Below are positions 29,895 to 39,915 of a DNA stretch of 64,000 nucleotides, one piece after another. The position numbers and the translations under genes were made by a program. The DNA is from an uncultured Gemmatimonadales bacterium. GTDB taxonomy: Bacteria; Gemmatimonadota; Gemmatimonadetes; Gemmatimonadales; GWC2-71-9. How positions within the stretch are numbered: position 1 is the stretch's first letter; each line of letters opens with the position of its first letter. The stretch covers positions 1,760,001 to 1,824,000 of the forward strand of contig CAVYSW010000003.1 in NCBI GenBank assembly GCA_963771275.1, given 5' to 3'. The notes beneath the pieces are model-generated. The model saw nothing but the letters and a program-made list of their open reading frames with translations, was not told where the DNA came from and did no database searches.

Positions 29895-29979
29895 GCCGAT
29901 GGCCGATAGCCGATGGCCGATAGCCGACGGGGAATCACCAAGGACAGAACGGCTCTCGGCTAACGGCCAACGGCTAACG
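29895..29979. repeat. Inverted heptamer arrays (GCCGATR / CGGCTAA) at a convergent gene junction
   Basis: 5x GCCGAYR, a 20-nt spacer, then 4x CGGCYAA-like units. Confidence 0.72.
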
Positions 29980-32092
29980 TCTTCTCCAGGAACGCCGCCG
30001 TCGCCGAGTCCACCGTCACCGCGTTCTGATAGCGCATCCAGTGGTGCGTGTCTCCCGGGATCGCCAGCGCCTCGAACGGAATGCCCCCGGCAACCAGGCG
30101 GCGCACCAGGTCCACGCTCTGGCTGAAGCGTACGTTGCGGTCATCGTCGCCCTGAATCACCAGCACCGGTGAGTGCCACGTCGCCATCGAGGAGACCGGT
30201 GACGACTGCCAGGCGACCGCCAGCGCACGCGCGAGGTCGGCCGGCTCCTCGTAGCGCTCGCGGTTCAGCATGCCGCGCGCCCGCTCCGCGGTCCAGTCGT
30301 GCACGCCGTGCAGGTCCACGCCGGCGGCGAACAGGTCGGAGTTCCGCGCCAGCGCCATCGCCGTGAGGAACCCGCCGTACGACCCGCCGTAGATCCCGAT
30401 CCGCGCGGGATCCACGTGGGAGAGCGTGCGCAGGTATTCCGCTCCCGCCTTGACGTCCTGATACTCGGCCGCGCCGCGCGCGCCGGTTTCCGGCGGCTGG
30501 TGGAATTCGTAGCCATAGCCGATGCCGAGCCGGTAGTTCACCGACAGCACCACGAACCCGCGGCTCGCGAGGTACTGATTCATCGCGTAGCAGTTCGCGT
30601 AGTAGTCCGAGTAGTGCCAGCCCAACAGCATCTGCCGCGGCGGCCCGCCGTGCACGAAAATCACGGCGGGCTTCCGGGCCGGGCCGCCGGGCCGCTCGAA
30701 CAGCTGGGCGTGGACGGTGACGCCGTCCGGCGCGCGGAAGACGACCTGGGTCGGGGTCACGAGCTGCGCGGTCGGGAAGTCGGCCGGGATCCGGTCGGCG
30801 GCGAGCGTGCGCTGCGCGCCGCCGTCCAACGGCATCACGCTGACGAGCGGCGGGCGCTGGGCCGTGGCGCCGATGAACGCCATCGTCTTGCCGTCACCGG
30901 TGACGACCGGCGTCCACTCCAGTCCCGTACCCGGCGTCATGACCTTGGGGCTCGCGCGGTCCACCGGCACCTTCACCACGTGCCGCCGGTCGATGTCGAG
31001 CCGGTCGCTCCCCGCGTTGGCGGCGAACACCAGCCAGCGGCCGTCGGGACTCAGCGAGATGTACTCGGCCATGAAGTCGCCGGGCGTGAGCAGCAGCGGA
31101 TCGCCGCCCGAGTCCGCGATCGAGTAGAGATGCGGCCAGCCGTCCTGGTAGGACAGGAACACGATCCGCCCGCCGGCGGCCCAATGCAGGTTGGTCCCAC
31201 CCTGCGTCGACGGCACCGAGCCGCGCAGCGTTTCCGGCGCCTTCCACAGGCGCCGCGCGTCGCCGGTGGCCACGTCGGCCGTCCAGATCTCCCACGGGCG
31301 GTGACGCTGGACGAGCAGGGAGTCGGGTGCGCCGCCCGCGCCGGACGTCCGGATGAAGGCGATCCGAGTACCGTCGGGCGACCAGCGGGGCGAGCCGTCG
31401 CGCGCGAACGAGGGGGCGAGCCAGCGGAGCGGCGTCGCGTCGTTGGTGTAGACGCCGACGTACGCGTGGTCCCCGCGGCCCGACATGAATGCCAGGCGCG
31501 CGCCGTCGGGGGACCACTGGAGATCGCCGTTGCTCCCGCGGTCGGTGACGATCGCCTTGGCGGGCACGGAGCCGTCGAGCGCCACCGCCCAGATCTGGCC
31601 GCCCTTGATGAACGCCACGATGTCGCCCCTGGGGGAGATCGTGGGCTCGTCCCCGTCGCCGATCACTCCGGGCTCGCCGCCGTCGAACGGGACGGCCAGG
31701 ATCTGCACCTTGGGTGGAGTGGGGCTGGCGGTCACGTTCACCGGCAGAGCGTCGTCCCAGTTGGCGCCGTGGTCGCCGCCCCGTACGTACACGACCCACC
31801 GTCCGTCGGCCGAGAGGCTGACACTCGAAAGCTCCTGGCCGTCGTCGGCGAGGTAGCCGGTGAGGCGGCGCGCGGCGAACTCGGGTCCCTCGGCCACGTA
31901 GACGTTGCGGAGGCCCTGCTCGTTCATCGCCCACGCGATGCGCGAGCCGGTGGCGGCGGCGGTCAGCTCGTTGGGGAACGGGTAGGAGCGGACCTGGGCA
32001 ACCGAGAAGCCCGCAGCGGAACCGCGCTGAGCGGTGGCGGGAGCGACGCAGATCGCGAGGGAGCAGAGCGCGAGCGCCAGGCGGCGGAGCAT
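29960..32092 (-). CDS. S9 family (prolyl oligopeptidase/dipeptidyl aminopeptidase) serine peptidase
   Basis: Signal peptide; WSPDG propeller repeats; GIYGGSYGG, GDDDRNV and DTHH catalytic motifs. Confidence 0.93.
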   Translation of the reverse strand: MLRRLALALCSLAICVAPATAQRGSAAGFSVAQVRSYPFPNELTAAATGSRIAWAMNEQGLRNVYVAEGPEFAARRLTGYLADDGQELSSVSLSADGRWVVYVRGGDHGANWDDALPVNVTASPTPPKVQILAVPFDGGEPGVIGDGDEPTISPRGDIVAFIKGGQIWAVALDGSVPAKAIVTDRGSNGDLQWSPDGARLAFMSGRGDHAYVGVYTNDATPLRWLAPSFARDGSPRWSPDGTRIAFIRTSGAGGAPDSLLVQRHRPWEIWTADVATGDARRLWKAPETLRGSVPSTQGGTNLHWAAGGRIVFLSYQDGWPHLYSIADSGGDPLLLTPGDFMAEYISLSPDGRWLVFAANAGSDRLDIDRRHVVKVPVDRASPKVMTPGTGLEWTPVVTGDGKTMAFIGATAQRPPLVSVMPLDGGAQRTLAADRIPADFPTAQLVTPTQVVFRAPDGVTVHAQLFERPGGPARKPAVIFVHGGPPRQMLLGWHYSDYYANCYAMNQYLASRGFVVLSVNYRLGIGYGYEFHQPPETGARGAAEYQDVKAGAEYLRTLSHVDPARIGIYGGSYGGFLTAMALARNSDLFAAGVDLHGVHDWTAERARGMLNRERYEEPADLARALAVAWQSSPVSSMATWHSPVLVIQGDDDRNVRFSQSVDLVRRLVAGGIPFEALAIPGDTHHWMRYQNAVTVDSATAAFLEKTLAVGR

Positions 32093-32192: not shown

Positions 32193-32855
32193 CTAGCCCT
32201 TCGGCTCCGGCGCGGGCGGCTCCGGCTCGTCGCCCAGGCCGACGAGGATGGCGTAGCGCAGCATGGCCCAGTCGCTGTCGAGCCCGATCTGTCGCCGGAT
32301 GGCCTTGCGGTGGTGATGGATGGTGTACGCGCTCAGGCCCAGGGTGGCCGCCATCTGCTCCGTGGTCATGCCCTGTCCGATCATCCGCACGATGGCCTGC
32401 TGGCGCGGCGTGAGCCGGCTGAACCCCAGCCGATCGATCTCGGGACCGCGCCGGACACGACGCGGCAGACGGGGCGAGAGGTAACGTCGCCCCTCGAGGA
32501 CTTCCTCGATGGCGGTGCGGAGCTCGTCGAGCGAGGCGTCCTTCGGCACGAAGGCGGAGGCGCCGAGGCGGATGGCCGCGTCCACCAAGACGGAGTCCAC
32601 ATGCATCGTGACCACCACCACGCGCGGCGCGGAGCTGATCTCCTGCAAGTCGCCGAGCAGGTCCATGCCGGTGCGGTGCGGGAGCGACAGGTCGAGCAGC
32701 AGCACGTCAGGCCGGTGTTCATGCACCGCGGCGATGACCTCGCGCCCGTCCCGCACGACCGCGAGCACGGTGTAGTCCTTTCCCAGCATCGCGCGCAGCC
32801 CCTCGCTGAAGAGCTCGTGATCCTCGGCAAGCAGCAGGCGTGGTTTGGCTCTCAC
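32193..32855 (-). CDS. NarL/LuxR-family response regulator
   Basis: LAEDHELF and LLLDLSLP receiver motifs; LTPRQQAIVRMIGQGMTTEQMA..LGLS HTH. Confidence 0.92.
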   Translation of the reverse strand: MRAKPRLLLAEDHELFSEGLRAMLGKDYTVLAVVRDGREVIAAVHEHRPDVLLLDLSLPHRTGMDLLGDLQEISSAPRVVVVTMHVDSVLVDAAIRLGASAFVPKDASLDELRTAIEEVLEGRRYLSPRLPRRVRRGPEIDRLGFSRLTPRQQAIVRMIGQGMTTEQMAATLGLSAYTIHHHRKAIRRQIGLDSDWAMLRYAILVGLGDEPEPPAPEPKG

Positions 32856-33625
32856 GGGTTCGCCTTGCCCGCCGGGACGCACACCGTGACGGTCGTCCCT
32901 CGGCCCGGCCGGCTCTCGATGCTTGCCTCGCCGCCCACCAACTGGGCGCGCTCCTCGATGCCGATGAGTCCAATGCCCCCGGTCCGGCGGCCCGCCGCCC
33001 TGGCAAACCCGCGTCCCCGGTCCTCGACGACCAACTCGATCCCCCGGGCGTTCTCGTGAAGCCCGAGCCAGGCCTCCGTCACCCCGGCGTGCCGCGTCAC
33101 GTTGCGGAGCGCTTCCTGCGCCGTGCGGAACAGCGTGAGGCTCGCCTCATCCGAGAGGCTCGTCGGGGCCGCCGGCAGGTTGAGGTGCACCGTGAGCCCC
33201 GAGGTCCGGAGCAGCTCCTCGGCGAGCTGCTCGAGCGCCGGGGCGAGCCCGACCTGCCCGATCAGGGTGGGATGCAGCCGATGGGCCAGCCGCCGCAAGG
33301 AGACCGCCATGTCCTCCACCTCGCCGAGGATCCCCGAAAGGTGATGGAGCTGGCCTCCGGAGAGGCTCGGCCCGGAGCGTTGTAACTCGTGCAGCTCGTG
33401 GGACAAGAGCGCCAGGCGCTGGATGGCGTCGTCGTGCACCTCGCGCGCCACGTGGGCGCGCTCCTCGTCTTGCGCCGCGAGCAGGCGTTGACCGTAGCTG
33501 CGGTGCAGGCTCAGGAGCCGGCGCTGGGCCACCACTACGGCGAGGCCGAGGGCGCCGACGAGGACGCCAACGGCGAGGACGGTGGCGAGAAAGCCCCACC
33601 AGAGCGCTTCGGCGGCAGCGGGCAC
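32852..33625 (-). CDS. Histidine kinase (HisKA_3/NarX-type) with one N-terminal TM and no sensor domain
   Basis: ERAHVAREVHDDAIQ H-box; QEALRNVTRHA, EDRGRGF and GIGLIGIEER boxes; start approximate. Confidence 0.88.
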   Translation of the reverse strand: MPAAAEALWWGFLATVLAVGVLVGALGLAVVVAQRRLLSLHRSYGQRLLAAQDEERAHVAREVHDDAIQRLALLSHELHELQRSGPSLSGGQLHHLSGILGEVEDMAVSLRRLAHRLHPTLIGQVGLAPALEQLAEELLRTSGLTVHLNLPAAPTSLSDEASLTLFRTAQEALRNVTRHAGVTEAWLGLHENARGIELVVEDRGRGFARAAGRRTGGIGLIGIEERAQLVGGEASIESRPGRGTTVTVCVPAGKANP

Positions 33626-34251
33626 AGCACTCCCCGGGTGATGGCGGCGAACGCGAGAATGTCCACGATGGCTTTCAGGTTGAACGCGGACAGAAGCAGA
33701 TCCCCGCGGCCGACGCGTACAAGATACCAGGCGAGGGGTTGCTGCGCCGTGGCCGTGCCGGTGAACAACATGATGCCGCCCAGGATCCAGAACCAGTCCT
33801 GGCGCAGCAGCCGCCCGCGCTCGGCGAGGCTGCGCGTCATGAAGGTCCAGAGCGCCGCGAAGAACAGGACGAGCGCGTGAAATGGCGCCGTGATCAAGCT
33901 GTACATCCGCGGGTCGTCCACGCCGAGCGTGAGGCCCGCGCTGACCAGCACGAACAGGGGGATCGCGATGCGGAGCGCGAGCCGGCCGGTCGCACCGCGG
34001 TGCCAGCACGACAGAGCCCACAGTGCCACGGCTCCGCCGAGCGGCATGAACAGGTAGCTCACCCAGAGGTTGTTGTGACCCCGGCTCCCGAGGGCGAGGG
34101 AGATGCCGTCACTGGCCGCCTGCAACAGGCACCAGGCAGTCACCCAGCGACGCGGGGCGGTGACGAGCCGACCCCATGCGACGCCGAGCAGCGGCGGCAG
34201 CAGCTGTGAGGCGGCCGCCGCATGCAGGATCCAGGGTGGCCTGGGCGGCAC
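33535..34251 (-). CDS. Polytopic (about 6-7 TM) membrane protein, candidate sensor partner of the kinase
   Basis: Successive hydrophobic helices; NNLWVSYLF and DWFWILGGIMLF segments; tightly packed between the small gene and the kinase. Confidence 0.75.
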   Translation of the reverse strand: MPPRPPWILHAAAASQLLPPLLGVAWGRLVTAPRRWVTAWCLLQAASDGISLALGSRGHNNLWVSYLFMPLGGAVALWALSCWHRGATGRLALRIAIPLFVLVSAGLTLGVDDPRMYSLITAPFHALVLFFAALWTFMTRSLAERGRLLRQDWFWILGGIMLFTGTATAQQPLAWYLVRVGRGDLLLSAFNLKAIVDILAFAAITRGVLCPLPPKRSGGAFSPPSSPLASSSAPSASP

Positions 34252-34255
34252 CGGC

Positions 34256-34570
34256 TCAGGGGCTCAGCTGGCTCGGGCTGCCGCAGAAGGGCGGACAGGG
34301 ATAGTGGAGGTCGAGCACGTCGCCGTCGGTCATGTCGTTGCCGCCCTCATCCACCCCGACCAGCACCAGCGCCGAGGCGCCGTCTTCCCGGCGGCCGTAG
34401 TAGAAGCGCATGGCTGCGCAGCCCGGCTGCAGCAGCAGCTCCTCGACCGCGGCGCGCGCGAACATCCCGCCGCGCTCGCCTTTCGGGCCGGCGGCATCGC
34501 GGTGACGACGTGTGAATTGCGCGGCGTCAGCCAGGGTGATGCGATGGTCACGCTTGGGAGGCAGAGGCAT
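34256..34570 (-). CDS. Small protein with a C-terminal PCPPFC motif (unknown function)
   Basis: RBS-like AGGAG upstream; HRITLADAA, QPGCAAMRFYYG, LVLVGVD..GND and YPCPPFC segments. Confidence 0.78.
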   Translation of the reverse strand: MPLPPKRDHRITLADAAQFTRRHRDAAGPKGERGGMFARAAVEELLLQPGCAAMRFYYGRREDGASALVLVGVDEGGNDMTDGDVLDLHYPCPPFCGSPSQLSP

Positions 34571-34645
34571 TGATGGGGTCTCCTGGGGAAGGACGTGCTC
34601 AACTCTGGTGCCAAGTGCCAGCGCCTGCAAGAGTTGCAAAACGCG

Positions 34646-34741
34646 ACTGCTACCAGTAGCAGGTCATGCACTGCTACCAGTAGCAGGTCGTGCACTGCTA
34701 CCACTAGCAGGTCGTGGGCTGCTACCACTAGCAGCTTGTGG
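34646..34741. repeat. Four tandem 24-bp units, each with the palindrome CTGCTAC-CA-STAGCAG; probable operator array
   Basis: Palindromes start at 34647, 34671, 34695 and 34719 (exact 24-bp period) in a divergent intergenic region. Confidence 0.88.
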
Positions 34742-34804: not shown

Positions 34805-36568
34805 ATGGCCGCGGATCTTGGGCACGCCGCTGCTCGGCTGCATGGCCGGGCTGCTCGGCGTGCCGCCGAGCGTGCCGGGGTGCCACGCGGTGCGCTGGGC
34901 GTCGCGCTCGTCTGCGTGGCCATCGCAACGCTGTGCGTGGTGGCGTCCGGCGACGTGCTGCATCTCGCCGTCTCGCATCCCGAGCGGCTCGCGCCAGGCG
35001 ATATCCTGAGGGCCGTGGGGCTGCTCCTGAGCGCAGGGGCGGTGTTCTGCGCCGGCCTGTGGTACTGGTCCGGAGCCGTGCGGCGCTCGAGCGCCGCCCT
35101 CGCCGCGCGCGAGCGGCTGCTCGAGGCGATCGCTCGGGAAGCGCCGGTGGGAATCGTGGTGGTCGGGGGTGAGGACGAGGTGGTGTCCTGGAACGCGGAA
35201 GCCGAGCGTCTCCTGGGGTGGAGTGAAGCGGACATCCTGGGGAAGCCGATTCCGTGGCAGGGTGAGGACGGGACCGGGCCTTCGTGGGTCGGGCGGGTGC
35301 GGCAGGGCGAGCGCCTGGCGGACTCGGACGCGCGGCTCCGGCGCAAGGACGGCTCATGGATCGAGGCGATCGTGTCGGCGGCGCCGCTGACCGATGGCGG
35401 CCGGCACGTCGGCGTCGTCGCGGTGCTGGTGGACGTGACGCGGCAGCGGCGGCTGGAAGCACAGCTCCGGCAGGCGCAGAAGATGGAGGTGCTCGGTCAG
35501 GTGGCGGGCGGCATCGCGCACGACTTCCGCAACATCCTCACCGTGATGAGCACCGTGGGCGAGGCGATCCGCTCGCGCCTGCCGCCGGAAGCAGGCGAGC
35601 TGCAGGCCGATGTGGCGGAGCTGCTACGCGCCGCCGAGCGCGGGGCGACCATCACGCGGCGGCTGCTGATCTTCAGCAGGCTCGAGGAGCTGAAGCTCCG
35701 CCCCACGGATCTGCGCACGGAGGTGCAAGAGGCCGTGAGCGTGCTGCGGCGGTTGGTTTCGGCGACGATCGCGATATCCGCCGATCTGCCGCGCGAGGCC
35801 GTGCCCGTCAACCTCGATTCGAACGCCATGATCCACATCCTCGCCAACCTCGCGACCAACGCCCGCGACGCGATGCCCGACGGGGGACAGCTGCGGCTGA
35901 TCGTCCGGCGGGTTGCCGAGAACGGCGAACCGGAGCGCGCCGTGGTGGAGGTGGTGGACACCGGCACAGGCATGGACCCGGACACACTCGGCAAGGTGTT
36001 CGAGCCGTTCTTTACGACCAAGCCCGCGGGCATCGGCACCGGGTTGGGGTTGCCGATCGTCCAGGGGCTGGTGGTGGAACAGGGGGGAACCGTGAGCGTG
36101 GACAGCAGAGTGGGCCGGGGGACGACCGTCAGGCTGTTCTTCCCGCTCGCCCCCAACGTGCTCACCCGAGCAGCCGCGAGTCCCGGCGTGATCCGCGGCG
36201 GGAGCGAAGCGATTCTGGTGGTCGAAGACGAAGAGGCGATCCGCCGTTCCGCGCAGCGGGGCCTCGAGCGCCTCGGCTATACGGTGCTGGTGGCGGCGGA
36301 CGGTGTCGAAGCGCTCGCGCTGCTCCGCGCCGGCCAGCGGGTGGATCTCGTGATCTCAGATGTGGTCATGCCGCGGATGGGTGGCCTCGAGTTCCGCGAG
36401 CGCCTGCTGCAGGACGGCATCCGGACGCGATTCCTGCTGGCGAGCGGCTACTGGCCCGAAGAGCGCGGCGCGGCCCCGGTGCCGCCGCCGGACGTGCCGT
36501 TTCTCCCCAAGCCGTGGACGCTGAACGAGCTGGCGCGCAAGGTCCGAGAAGTGCTGGACCAGGAGTGA
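34805..36568 (+). CDS. Hybrid sensor histidine kinase (2 TM, PAS, HisKA, HATPase, REC)
   Basis: WNAEAERLLGW PAS; QAQKMEVLGQVAGGIAHDF; FEPFFTTK..G.GTGLGL; VVEDEE...SDVVMP. Confidence 0.92.
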   Translation: MAADLGHAAARLHGRAARRAAERAGVPRGALGVALVCVAIATLCVVASGDVLHLAVSHPERLAPGDILRAVGLLLSAGAVFCAGLWYWSGAVRRSSAALAARERLLEAIAREAPVGIVVVGGEDEVVSWNAEAERLLGWSEADILGKPIPWQGEDGTGPSWVGRVRQGERLADSDARLRRKDGSWIEAIVSAAPLTDGGRHVGVVAVLVDVTRQRRLEAQLRQAQKMEVLGQVAGGIAHDFRNILTVMSTVGEAIRSRLPPEAGELQADVAELLRAAERGATITRRLLIFSRLEELKLRPTDLRTEVQEAVSVLRRLVSATIAISADLPREAVPVNLDSNAMIHILANLATNARDAMPDGGQLRLIVRRVAENGEPERAVVEVVDTGTGMDPDTLGKVFEPFFTTKPAGIGTGLGLPIVQGLVVEQGGTVSVDSRVGRGTTVRLFFPLAPNVLTRAAASPGVIRGGSEAILVVEDEEAIRRSAQRGLERLGYTVLVAADGVEALALLRAGQRVDLVISDVVMPRMGGLEFRERLLQDGIRTRFLLASGYWPEERGAAPVPPPDVPFLPKPWTLNELARKVREVLDQE

Positions 36569-36708
36569 CACGCGCCCGAGCGCCTTTCCGGCATGGTACC
36601 CCGGGAAGGCGCTCGCTGGGGGGCTTGGTTCTCCCCCGGTGCGGTGCAGAGCGGCTCGGTCCAAGGCGGTCCATCGCCGAGGAGGGTATCAGGAAGAGGA
36701 GGTTTGTC

Positions 36709-39700
36709 ATGCCGAATCTCGCGCTCTTGGTGGCAACCGTGGTCGCGGCCTGTCTCTGGCCCACCGACGAGCCGCCGCAGGGAGCCACGCCCGGCGTGCT
36801 GGTGAGCCCACAGGCCCCGATCGACACGACCGTAGGAATGAGCGCCGACACCTACCTGCGACAAAGTGAGCCCAACCGGAACTTCGGTACGGAGCCCTTC
36901 CTCCGGGTGCGGCCGACGGGAAAGAATCGCGCGCTGCTCGCCGTGGACCAAACGGCGCTCGCCGCTCTGATCGGCGGGGCCACGGTGACGGCGGCCCGGC
37001 TGGAGCTCACGATCACCGAGAACGCCAACAACTGGGGGCCGGAGGGACGGGCCATTGCGTTGCACCGGCTCACGGTGCCGTGGAGCGAGACCGCGGCGAC
37101 GTGGAACTGCGGGGTGGACACGGTGCCGGGGAACCCGCAGGCGGAGTGCGCGGCGAGGACGGCGTGGGAGATGGGCGGTGCGGGTCCGTGGGTCGTGCCG
37201 CCCACCGCGACGGCCACCATCACGAACGGGCTCCGTGGGGTGGTGACGTTCGACGTGGCCGCGGATGTCGCGGCGTGGCTGAGCGGGACGCCGAATGCGG
37301 GGTGGATCCTCAAGCGGGTGGACGAGGGGCCGAGTGGGGCGGTGGAGTTCGGGTCGCGGGAGAGTGGGAGCCCGCCCGTGCTGGTGCTCACGCTGGCGGT
37401 CGGAGACACGAGCCGACCGCCGATTCCCGATGGGTTCGTGGCACCGGACGGCGCCGTCGCACTGTTGGTTTCTCCGCCGGGGGACGATTCCGTGTTGGTC
37501 CTCCGAGATTTCATCCGAATCATCTTCGACGATACAACAAGCGGTTACACCATCAGAAGCGTCTTTGCCCGCTACGGCGGGCACATCGTCGGTGGCGATA
37601 CGCTGCTCGAGTCTTACATGGTGCAGGTACCAGATCCGGGGCCCACTTATGCTGCCCTCGACTCCCTGCTTTCGCGCGTGCGGAGCGAACCCGGGGTCCG
37701 TTTCGCCATTCGGTATGTCTTTAGTGAGCCGGTTCGCGATCCTGGTCGCTACCCCGAGGACGATCCCCAGTCCTCGCGGCGACAGGACTGGTGCGGGCCC
37801 GGTACGGATGGAACACGCGCGCTCACGGCGATACGTGCTCCGCTTGCATGGAGCTGCGAGACGGGGCTCTACGGAACAGATGCCGTCGCTATCGGTGTGA
37901 TGGAGGACGTCGTTGACGCCACCATCCCGGACTTGGCCCCGTCCTTCAGCCGTCTCCATGCTGCGAGTGCAAGTCAGCCCATTAACACAACCGTCACCTT
38001 GTCGGTGGGTGCCCTCAGTCACGGGACTGGCGTGGCAGGAGTGCTGTCAGCTCGCGGGGACAACGGTTTGGGAGTGCCTGGTCTGACCTGGCAAAGCGAG
38101 CTCCATGTGTTCAGGCTGGCGCGGGAGGACGGCAACACCACCAGGATGATCCGGGATCGCGCGCAGGCCATAGAGCGGGCCATTCGCCTCGCTGCCGCGA
38201 CCCCCGTGCGGATCCTGCATAGCTCGGTCGAGGCGACTGCGGATCCGGAGGAGGCAAGGGTTCTTGCAGCGGCGATTGCGGATTTCGTGAACACGTCCCC
38301 CGGCCGCATCTTCGTCCAGGCCGGCGGAGACAATCGGTACACAATCCGGCCCGATACGATCTTGCAGATAGGGCAGGGCGGGTTCGTCATGCACCAGGCG
38401 ATGGTGCTGCTCGATCCCACGGTAAAGGCGCGCGTCCTGTTGGTCGGCGCCGCCAATCGGGACGGGACTGATATCTGGGGCTTGGGCCTCGACCCGAACG
38501 CGTGGGGTAGTGCGACCCTCATTTCTGGCGTCACGGACATACTCGTGCCCGCTGCGGATATCCTCACACTTGTGCGGCCGCAGGATTTCAATGGCGCCTC
38601 CGTCCGGTCGGGGTCCGGGACTTCCTTCGGCGCACCCATGGTCTCCGGCACCGCCGCGCTCTTGTGGGCCTTCGATCCGACACTGACGGCCGACGAGGTG
38701 AAGGGCTACATCGTCGACGGTGCCAGAGAGCGGATGAGCGCCACGGGCACGATTGAGCCCAGCCCGGTGGTTCCCAACAGCGGGGGGTTGAATCTGCTGG
38801 ACGCCTACGAGGCGCTGGCGCGGGCGTCGCGGGAGCGCCCCGGCACGACGCCGATCTGCGGCGGCCAGGTGTGGGCCAGCGAGGCATCCATCCACGTCGA
38901 TCAGGGAGCGCCGGCGCTCCGGATCATCCCCGTCCCCAGTGCGCGCTTCCTCGGCCTCGCGTCCGTCGCGCAGGGCGGGCGCCGGATTGCCGTGACCGAC
39001 TTCCGCTTCCCGGATCCGACGGAGACCCTGATCGTGACCAACACGGGTGCCATCGACTCGGTGCTCGGTGGCGTCTACGCCCGGCAGTACCTGGAACGTG
39101 GCACGGCCGATCTCAAGGTCGCGGCTCCGGACGGGTCGTTCGCCGAGGGGCTCGTGCTCACGCTGCGCGGCACGGGGGTGGACCTCACCGACCAGCACCT
39201 GGACGGCGTGACGGCACCGCCCGGGGCCAGCGAGAGCAGGGCGGAGTACATCATCGTGTCGCCCCTGGGTGACCTGGCCGCCGTGCAAACGCCGGCGTGG
39301 ATGCCCGACGGCGGCGGCACCGCCCGGTGGGACCTGGTTCGGCTCACGAGCCCGCCGCAGGCGGCTGGGAACATCATGGACCTCCAGTTCCCGGCTGATC
39401 CCGTTCCGTGCGCGACCGACTGCCGGCTCGGCATCTGGAATGCCGCGTGGACCCATGACAGCCGGCGGGTGGTCTTCACGCTCGCCCATGCCGACTACTA
39501 CCAGGGTGGGGGCGGTGGCGGTGATTTGGGGCCGCCGGCCGGAATCGCGACCGGCGCGCAGCTCGAGAACGGCGACCTCATCGCGATTGCGACGCGGCTG
39601 ATCAGCGTGCCGATCGTGAACGGAGCGGCCCAGGCGGCCGACAGCACGCCGTTGCTCGAGGGAGAGTGGCTGGCGAGCCCGCGCTTCACGGCCGATGATG

Positions 39701-39915
39701 TGCTCCTGATCGCGGAGCACCTGGGGCTGGTGGACGGTGTGGTGGGGGGGACCTGCGAGGAGAAGCGGCGTCTCCCGGCGAGCCCATTCACGGTGCAGGC
39801 AGCCCGAGCACCGCTGTTGGCCGCGTTCTGCGATCCGTACGCCGATGGCCCGCGGATCTTCAACGCCCCGCCGGCGGCCGTGGCCAGCCGCACGAGGTAT
39901 GTCCAGCGGCGATAG
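36709..39915 (+). CDS. Secreted S8 subtilase with an N-terminal DNRLRE-like domain
   Basis: GAGGAGG RBS; signal peptide; ADTYLRQSEPNRNFG; SHGTGVAGVL and SGTSFGAPMVSGTAALL catalytic His/Ser motifs. Confidence 0.85.
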   Translation: MPNLALLVATVVAACLWPTDEPPQGATPGVLVSPQAPIDTTVGMSADTYLRQSEPNRNFGTEPFLRVRPTGKNRALLAVDQTALAALIGGATVTAARLELTITENANNWGPEGRAIALHRLTVPWSETAATWNCGVDTVPGNPQAECAARTAWEMGGAGPWVVPPTATATITNGLRGVVTFDVAADVAAWLSGTPNAGWILKRVDEGPSGAVEFGSRESGSPPVLVLTLAVGDTSRPPIPDGFVAPDGAVALLVSPPGDDSVLVLRDFIRIIFDDTTSGYTIRSVFARYGGHIVGGDTLLESYMVQVPDPGPTYAALDSLLSRVRSEPGVRFAIRYVFSEPVRDPGRYPEDDPQSSRRQDWCGPGTDGTRALTAIRAPLAWSCETGLYGTDAVAIGVMEDVVDATIPDLAPSFSRLHAASASQPINTTVTLSVGALSHGTGVAGVLSARGDNGLGVPGLTWQSELHVFRLAREDGNTTRMIRDRAQAIERAIRLAAATPVRILHSSVEATADPEEARVLAAAIADFVNTSPGRIFVQAGGDNRYTIRPDTILQIGQGGFVMHQAMVLLDPTVKARVLLVGAANRDGTDIWGLGLDPNAWGSATLISGVTDILVPAADILTLVRPQDFNGASVRSGSGTSFGAPMVSGTAALLWAFDPTLTADEVKGYIVDGARERMSATGTIEPSPVVPNSGGLNLLDAYEALARASRERPGTTPICGGQVWASEASIHVDQGAPALRIIPVPSARFLGLASVAQGGRRIAVTDFRFPDPTETLIVTNTGAIDSVLGGVYARQYLERGTADLKVAAPDGSFAEGLVLTLRGTGVDLTDQHLDGVTAPPGASESRAEYIIVSPLGDLAAVQTPAWMPDGGGTARWDLVRLTSPPQAAGNIMDLQFPADPVPCATDCRLGIWNAAWTHDSRRVVFTLAHADYYQGGGGGGDLGPPAGIATGAQLENGDLIAIATRLISVPIVNGAAQAADSTPLLEGEWLASPRFTADDVLLIAEHLGLVDGVVGGTCEEKRRLPASPFTVQAARAPLLAAFCDPYADGPRIFNAPPAAVASRTRYVQRR

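Follow-up and report, generated by a model that had tools for sequence, protein, structure and literature searches.

A conserved four-gene cassette of Gemmatimonadota joins genes for a small protein and a predicted seven-helix membrane protein to a two-component system in a candidate signalling circuit

Results

A compact cassette of four genes with an upstream palindrome array

The window analysed here is a stretch of 64,000 nucleotides (nt) from an uncultured Gemmatimonadales bacterium (assembly GCA_963771275.1, contig CAVYSW010000003.1, positions 1,760,001 to 1,824,000), and its minus strand contains a cassette of four genes for a small protein, a membrane protein, a histidine kinase and a response regulator of the NarL/LuxR type (Table 1). 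An earlier note, made from the sequence alone, had described four tightly packed genes in this place, and all four open reading frames (ORFs) were located with the junctions given in the table. Their GC content at third codon positions (0.85-0.91) compared with that at second positions (0.44-0.57) is a codon bias typical of genuine genes, and the cassette occurs as a single copy in the source genome. The four genes are genuine and conserved as a set.

In Pfam, the kinase matched HisKA_3 and HATPase_c and the regulator matched Response_reg and GerE, and no family was matched by the small protein or by the membrane protein. The kinase has one N-terminal hydrophobic segment and no sensor domain, in agreement with the earlier note, and the last gene is the NarL/LuxR regulator described there. 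The small protein is indeed 104 amino acids (aa) long without a signal peptide, but DLHYPCPPFC, taken in the earlier note for its end, is followed by the eight residues GSPSQLSP; the membrane protein, for which six or seven helices had been counted, is polytopic and shows seven in its model.

Table 1. Positions of the cassette genes and associated features in the window, and of candidate sites in G000
Feature	Position	Strand	Description
Small protein gene	34256..34570	-	104 aa, unnamed family; AGGAG upstream of start
Seven-helix membrane protein gene	33535..34251	-	238 aa, unnamed family, stand-alone; 4-nt gap to small gene
Histidine kinase gene	32852..33625	-	257 aa; GTG start behind GGGGAG; 91-nt overlap with membrane gene
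NarL/LuxR-type response regulator gene	32193..32855	-	220 aa; GTGA overlap with kinase gene
Palindrome array	34646..34734	no strand	24-bp x 3.7 repeat; likely operator of the regulator, predicted from sequence
TTGCAA hexamer	34634..34639	-	Likely -35 element of an activated promoter; 7 nt past the most proximal palindrome
Divergent hybrid kinase gene	34805..36568	+	N-terminal hydrophobic segments, PAS, HisKA, HATPase_c, REC; shares the intergenic array
Candidate regulon sites of the regulator in the source genome, G000 (loci L056-L066)	C3:28026, 204698/204722, 984436, 1014947, 1289763, 1440844, 1443114, 1451280, 1735204; C5:158; C9:10312; C9:282047

The small and membrane genes precede kinases in three lineages

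The linkage of the small and membrane genes to two-component genes, on which the proposal of the earlier note depended, was found repeatedly. In 25 metagenome loci, some of them near-duplicates, the membrane gene came next in all 25 and the kinase was present in 24, the sole miss being a 1.1-kb contig. A set of 106 loci was drawn from three lineage samples, with 9 duplicates and 13 operator loci removed; here a hidden Markov model of the seven-transmembrane (7TM) protein matched in 90 loci, and a kinase resembling that of the window lay within short flanks in 60, a count that misses the ignavibacterial kinases with PAS domains. The small gene was detected in 34 of 251 own-phylum genomes, in 33 of the 151 genomes in the sample of the ignavibacterial class and in 22 of 151 Bacteroidia genomes, where some matches were weak. 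Its family amounts to 2,605 clusters at 50% identity. The label of a close 7TM homologue is Gemmatimonadota, the phylum from which most of the nearest Atlas clusters also come, in keeping with a placement of the source genome there; the Atlas clusters are all unnamed. No homologue appeared in viral contigs, phage collections or plasmid collections, and no published description of the module was found in the open-licence PMC and bioRxiv literature. The two genes form a genuine, widespread and undescribed input module for two-component systems.

Some loci depart from the common layout. The order in L017 is shuffled (hybrid kinase, kinase, regulator, small gene, 7TM gene). In G032:C169 (L035/L142), two pairs of small and 7TM genes with differing tails lie ahead of one kinase, and G234:C3 (L036/L143) has retained one pair plus a 7TM remnant; these arrangements suggest duplication of the pair and two inputs to one kinase. 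In the Bacteroidia loci L122, L123, L126, L127 and L131, no 7TM or kinase gene was found in the examined flank of exported, mostly two-domain homologues, which may act in trans or have a different role.

A stand-alone protein with seven predicted helices and a one-helix kinase

The model of the membrane protein has seven helices with a predicted local distance difference test score (pLDDT) of 92.5, and the stretch encoded by the last ~28 codons, which overlap the kinase gene, is poorly ordered. Its nearest folds are designed proteins resembling G protein-coupled receptors (GPCRs), adhesion and class C GPCRs, and microbial rhodopsins, with Z scores of 11-13.6, a root mean square deviation of 4-5, an identity of 6-14% and Foldseek E values above 0.01; for the best matches, GPCR-like folds with Z 13.6-11.5, the deviation is ~4.2 over ~200 residues. 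Lys plus Arg residues average 3.3, 1.7 and 2.6 in loops 1, 3 and 5 and 0.95, 0.84 and 1.2 in loops 2, 4 and 6, and an N-out/C-in topology is predicted because of this charge bias. The outer halves of the helices vary more than the inner halves (2.34 vs 1.92 bits, p=1e-4 with columns that are not independent) at all depths tested. Retinal binding was considered and rejected, as there is no conserved Lys in the middle of helix 7; the sole Lys column, position 193, lies near the outer end and holds Lys in 38%. A functional role for the Cys-Pro at the end of helix 7 was also discarded, since it coincides with the ribosome site and GTG start of the kinase gene.

Across loci, the product of the gene after the 7TM gene begins with one helix of a similar kind and a coiled coil, and beyond this shared part comes HisKA_3 directly, PAS-GAF-HisKA_3, PAS-HisKA or a hybrid kinase. 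A helix profile built from own-phylum kinases recovered three ignavibacterial kinases at E<0.002 and three more weakly, and within the source genome it matched the cassette kinase only. Because a similar helix heads different kinases, we infer that the N-terminal helix is the docking part of the kinase. The 7TM protein and the kinase are separate overlapping ORFs in the window and in the inspected loci, and a search among 8000 long candidates found no fused 7TM-kinase form, which counts as weak evidence. In L221:3197-5024, the kinase-type helix opens two consecutive genes, first a 184-aa ORF that lacks a kinase domain, then a full kinase.

Covariation was assessed in 50 dereplicated pairs, with kinship handled by partial correlation only. 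Distances among small proteins follow those among 7TM proteins, with a partial r of 0.29-0.36 for the outer half, but not those among kinases, for which the value is about 0.

A folded small protein with a variable residue ahead of its Cys-Pro-Pro motif

AlphaFold2 models the small protein as a compact alpha/beta domain (pLDDT 90). Foldseek searches of PDB and viral structures and a wide structural search (best Z 3.2) returned no clear counterpart, an absence that is no proof of a new fold. The 107 small proteins had no match in NCBIfam or PHROGs, and PDB sequences likewise yielded nothing. The C-terminal motif reads [DE]-x-x-x-P-C-P-P-x-C, and the conservation of CPPxC that the earlier note had presumed is borne out: C92, P93 and C96 are invariant in the 107 aligned proteins, and H9, R55, Y57 and D79 are nearly so. 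The motif is modelled within the folded domain (strand 90-92, pLDDT 82-86). No position varies more than residue 88, between the conserved D/E87 and CPP, whether the whole family or a set of 11 close relatives is considered. It is likely that the variable residues ahead of CPPxC set specificity while exposed on the folded domain and not cleaved off.

N-termini were counted in the 150 best representatives by a hydropathy rule and not by SignalP, and a hydrophobic extension was present in 41 of them. Tandem two-domain proteins made up 61 of the same 150, with CxxxC kept in both domains (25), in the last only (25) or in the first only (8). A signal-like copy lies directly ahead of the 7TM gene in seven loci identified by eye (L094, L099, L100, L102, L103, L124, and L133), and the copies of L124 and L133 carry a lipoprotein-like Cys. 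Since homologues with a signal-like or lipoprotein N-terminus fill the same slot, the likely place of action of the small protein is outside the membrane. In L101 and L125, a signal-less copy precedes the 7TM gene and an exported copy follows it. A third Cys, C51, is kept in 56/64 signal-less vs 14/22 signal-bearing single-domain proteins (p=0.02; 3 not parsed).

Some ignavibacterial genomes have 3-6 near-identical small genes in tandem, the last with a Cys-less tail, as might be expected of a signal limited by dose. Several Bacteroidia copies retain Pro-Pro and lack Cys; Cys-less tails are also found in the distant members L109, L114 and L119 and in the first gene of L125. As ignavibacterial and Bacteroidia copies have such tails, a disulfide is not universal. 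The proteins of the tandem arrays (L078, L079, L083, L087-L090, L093, L095, and L104) have a non-hydrophobic N-terminal extension of 30-45 residues. In the ignavibacterial arrays, the copy adjacent to the 7TM gene is the one with the Cys-less tail, and it is possible that this copy is an antagonist or a decoy.

A putative operator with genome-specific alleles

The region upstream of the operon contains four palindromes of 16 bp (CTGCTA-N4-TAGCAG; starts 34647, 34671, 34695, and 34719), spaced 24 bp apart; the range given for the cassette in the earlier note, to 34741, takes in this array without mention of it. A 14-base pattern of the putative operator has 7 exact sites in the source genome vs 0.013 expected and is found in 0 of 250 other genomes. 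Related 16-bp CT..AG palindromes occur upstream of 26 of 57 distinct relatives vs 3.2 expected from doublet shuffles, and perfect ones in 18 of the 57 upstream regions vs 0.3 expected. The array might also be a coding repeat of an extended hybrid-kinase ORF, as both the window and L001 have an open frame there; this was rejected because L003 keeps four palindromes at the same 24-bp spacing, with changes on both arms, and differs in sequence and peptide.

NarL-type operators have a 7-2-7 geometry, and the palindrome at the cassette promoter is, at the level of sequence, a 16-bp inverted repeat as in NarL/LuxR operators. The regulator of the window has the recognition helix YTIHHHRKAI. The type of site matches helix position 4 in 22/23 loci, with Glu accompanying GG sites and other residues accompanying CTAC, CTAT or CTGC. 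Each cassette genome carries its own site allele genome-wide (12, 22, 18, and 8 sites, and 0 in a cassette-less genome), and three CTAT genomes have 2-4 sites each. Among 171 genomes, at least five CTACYA sites were found in four genomes and one site in six. Three of those four were already known as cassette carriers; the fourth, then checked blind, also proved to be a carrier, with a site 52 nt upstream of the cassette genes and, as predicted, an HTVAFH helix. Three of the genomes with a single CTACYA site have no cassette.

At 22/47 sites a TTG[CA] hexamer is no more than 10 nt away from an arm, vs 30/234 control windows, the commonest offset being 0, and an operator that abuts the -35 element is the geometry of an activator. 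A consensus sigma-70 scan revealed no full promoter at the operon. Neither a terminator nor an Rfam match was found at the locus, and viral contigs contained no tandem operator. Of four RNA runs, three yielded 0 reads and the other 4 partial reads, too few to bear on expression. The palindromes precede relatives of the operon, change with the recognition helix, recur genome-wide in the matching genomes and in many cases lie next to a -35-like hexamer, which makes it likely that the regulator is an activator of its own operon and of a small regulon.

The genes preceded by sites in the source genome encode an HlyD-type protein, a secreted TonB_C protein, AraC-like proteins (one of them with a subtilase gene after it), a secreted amidohydrolase, a PPC-domain lipoprotein and a REC-HD protein, and mixed genes lie downstream of the sites in four further genomes. 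Signal-like starts follow the sites in 13/40 cases vs 65/371 (p=0.03, a crude comparison in which 13/47 sites had no called gene). Several G000 sites adjoin toxin-antitoxin or other seemingly mobile genes, and the site with the AraC-like gene at C3:1443114 is duplicated at C3:1451280. In G166, a gene for a ThsB-like protein with a TIR domain lies downstream of a palindrome (L207:963-1394), and a second site on the contig has near-identical flanks.

Discussion

We propose that the cassette is, as a whole, a self-activating circuit in which the small protein acts on the outer face of the membrane as the likely ligand of the 7TM protein, and we give this reading a probability of about 0.5. The small folded protein would reach the outer face of the cell membrane, where it would bind a variable pocket of the 7TM protein, which would in turn shift the kinase through the single membrane helix of the latter. 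Once phosphorylated, the regulator would bind the 16-bp palindromes next to the -35 hexamer and switch on its own operon plus about 10-20 other promoters, modestly enriched for exported proteins. A signal-less copy, such as that of the window, would have to leave the cytoplasm by non-classical export or lysis. These parts do not stand equally firm. We have strong confidence in the predicted binding of the regulator to the palindromes. The anatomy of the proteins gives moderate confidence that the 7TM protein contacts the kinase helix and that the small protein has its site of action outside the membrane, and the case for the small protein as an agonist is weaker. The split receptor suggested in the earlier note is in keeping with this anatomy, that is, with the seven-helix model, the separate 7TM gene and the sensorless one-helix kinase; two of its suggested inputs, a released tail and redox or metal sensing, are not favoured as the general mechanism, as argued below. 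The autoinduction that it had drawn from peptide quorum sensing agrees with the operator statistics of the own phylum, which point to an autoregulated operon.

Several observations weigh against the proposed circuit. A Z score of 12-13 for a helical bundle may reflect merely a common arrangement. The best conserved residues of the 7TM protein are mostly in the inner half, which would fit a cytoplasmic partner too. Covariation specific to the tail with the 7TM outer half was not significant, being suggestive in the own phylum, where 15/200 control column sets reached its level, and absent overall (112/200). A signal-like N-terminus is missing from the window copy and from 109 of the 150 best representatives, and no exporter or protease is conserved beside or between the cassette genes in the compared loci. 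A 7TM match is missing from 16/106 loci, of which ~4 are cut at contig or locus ends, 6 have a kinase farther on and 6 have neither within the flank, these last being mostly exported or tandem small-protein forms. As for the operator, the sequences that served to define the CT..AG pattern were also those in which it was counted, the agreement between helix and site represents only 2 independent changes on the tree and thus has no statistical weight, and the blind-checked genome belongs to the same genus as G166, which was used for building the pattern. Moreover, the CTAT pattern matched nowhere in the cassette genome G188, only 8/26 cassette-proximal sites have the -35-like hexamer after them, and the samples of Bacteroidia and Ignavibacteria show no enrichment of the palindrome (3/52 vs 2.9 expected).

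An autoregulated operon is equally compatible with negative feedback, and the small protein could be a brake or adaptor at the outer face, induced by the regulator and holding the 7TM protein and kinase off until envelope damage, oxidation or metal at the two Cys residues frees it, in a stress system like LiaFSR or RcsF-IgaA-RcsC. The invariance of C92 and C96 among the closest 107 proteins and a putative regulon with an efflux component, proteases and surface proteins agree with such a role. The lipoprotein-like copies of L124, L133 and L125 would also remain cell-bound like the lipoprotein RcsF, which feeds the inner-membrane partner in RcsF-IgaA-RcsC (PMC12471899). However, the hypervariable residues at the motif and in the outer half of the receptor suggest private specificities, needless for a generic stress input, and the tandem identical copies and the Cys-less tails of distant members argue against an obligatory thiol sensor and against redox or metal input as a general mechanism. 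We therefore consider a brake rather unlikely.

Another possibility, which goes back to the earlier note, is that the small protein is a precursor from which a short disulfide-cyclised CPPxC peptide is cut off and diffuses between cells as an autoinducer of the agr/com kind. The variable residues between D/E87 and CPP do resemble a pherotype, the retention of CxxxC in the 61 tandem proteins implies that the terminal motif matters most, and autoregulation is as in peptide quorum sensing. Nevertheless, the core of 85 residues has a fold and conserved positions (R55, Y57, and D79), unlike a leader peptide, the motif appears packed into the fold in the model, Cys-less tails exist, and the loci share no conserved AgrB, ComQ, C39 exporter or protease, all of which makes a released peptide improbable. 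It is quite improbable, finally, that the signal-less copies are cytoplasmic and serve as soluble transducers or modulators on the inner face of a 7TM protein that senses some small molecule outside, for which Anabaena sensory rhodopsin transducer would be the analogue: the lack of a signal peptide in the window copy and most relatives, the inner-half conservation of the 7TM protein and the L101 and L125 operons with one copy of each kind speak for it, but it leaves the signal-bearing copies directly before the 7TM gene in seven loci unexplained, and a kinase interface also predicts inner-half conservation.

The proposed circuit can be compared with known systems. RocA of group A Streptococcus is not known to have a co-encoded soluble partner, and its kinase CsrS (CovS) retains its own sensor. 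RocA is a separately encoded protein with seven membrane helices that binds CsrS inside the membrane and alters regulator phosphorylation (PMC6635533). The likeness consists in a separately encoded seven-helix partner of a kinase, with a contact that is presumed in the cassette; the two differ in the cytoplasmic domain of RocA and its location outside the csrRS operon (PMC6635533). By analogy, the cassette appears to resemble RocA-CsrS combined with an autoregulated signal gene of the agr/com kind. In agrBDCA and comQXPA, a signal gene, a kinase and a regulator are in one autoregulated operon, signal and receptor are variable, the sensor helices are within the kinase, a dedicated processing enzyme is encoded alongside, and a short peptide serves as the signal; ComP is a HisKA_3 kinase, and ComA is a palindrome-binding regulator of the NarL type. 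The operator statistics of the own phylum suggest a similar autoregulation in the cassette, whose receptor is in contrast a separate gene, with no conserved processing gene and with a folded 100-residue domain as the candidate signal.

LiaFSR and VraTSR have a sensorless or sensor-poor HisKA_3 kinase, a NarL-type regulator, a separate membrane partner and autoregulation. The cassette differs from LiaFSR and Rcs in its one-helix kinase and in the family of the partner, since 82 members of the membrane protein family gave no LiaF- or IgaA-type Pfam match (E<=0.1). In sensory rhodopsin-Htr complexes, too, a receptor of seven helices acts on the membrane helices of a separate transducer, from which the signal goes on to a histidine kinase; the cassette 7TM protein has no conserved Lys in mid-helix 7, and thus no retinal, and its partner is the kinase itself. 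With NarL/LuxR two-component systems the cassette has in common the HisKA_3 and HATPase_c kinase and the REC and GerE regulator in one operon. The cassette falls outside agr/com by its separate receptor and lack of a processing gene, outside LiaFSR by the lack of LiaF and outside the rhodopsins by the lack of the Lys. In KbaA-KinB of Bacillus subtilis, a membrane protein acts upstream of a kinase (PMC6011975). KbaA (PF14089) was a weak match in 2/82 7TM proteins (best E 9e-5) and none in 80/82; it is not encoded with such a small protein, and any kinship with the 7TM protein is tentative.

Two large unnamed families thus make up a conserved input module for kinases. To our knowledge, and consistent with literature searches that found none, peptide or protein signalling is not well described in the lineages that carry them. 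The operator makes the system testable, since the four genes with their promoter array are a ready reporter, and the natural alleles of helix and site are built-in specificity controls. If the protein-ligand model is true, the module would provide a GPCR-like modular coupling of receptor to kinase and a source of orthogonal signal-receptor pairs; a confirmed folded-protein ligand would be an undescribed and categorically new route of bacterial signalling. A bolder version, tentative and on the whole doubtful, is that of a hormone-like system in which a 100-residue ligand of new fold with a variable Cys-Pro-Pro loop acts on a stand-alone receptor of GPCR fold that drives interchangeable kinases through one helix, the signal-less ligand being stored and freed by lysis or leakage as a self-amplifying, kin-specific alarm or density signal across Gemmatimonadota, Bacteroidia and Ignavibacteria.

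As to the neighbouring genes, a hybrid kinase like the divergent one of the window is the upstream neighbour in a minority of loci only and is thus an optional neighbour. It is followed by a gene for a large secreted subtilase with a CBM96 domain (36670-39912, plus strand), and the operator array could also act towards this side of the intergenic region. On the other side, a secreted S9 prolyl/dipeptidyl peptidase is encoded on the same strand 100 nt downstream of the cassette (29960-32092, minus strand); though attractive for a Pro-rich tail, it was rejected as a dedicated processing enzyme, being common to only 1/25 loci.

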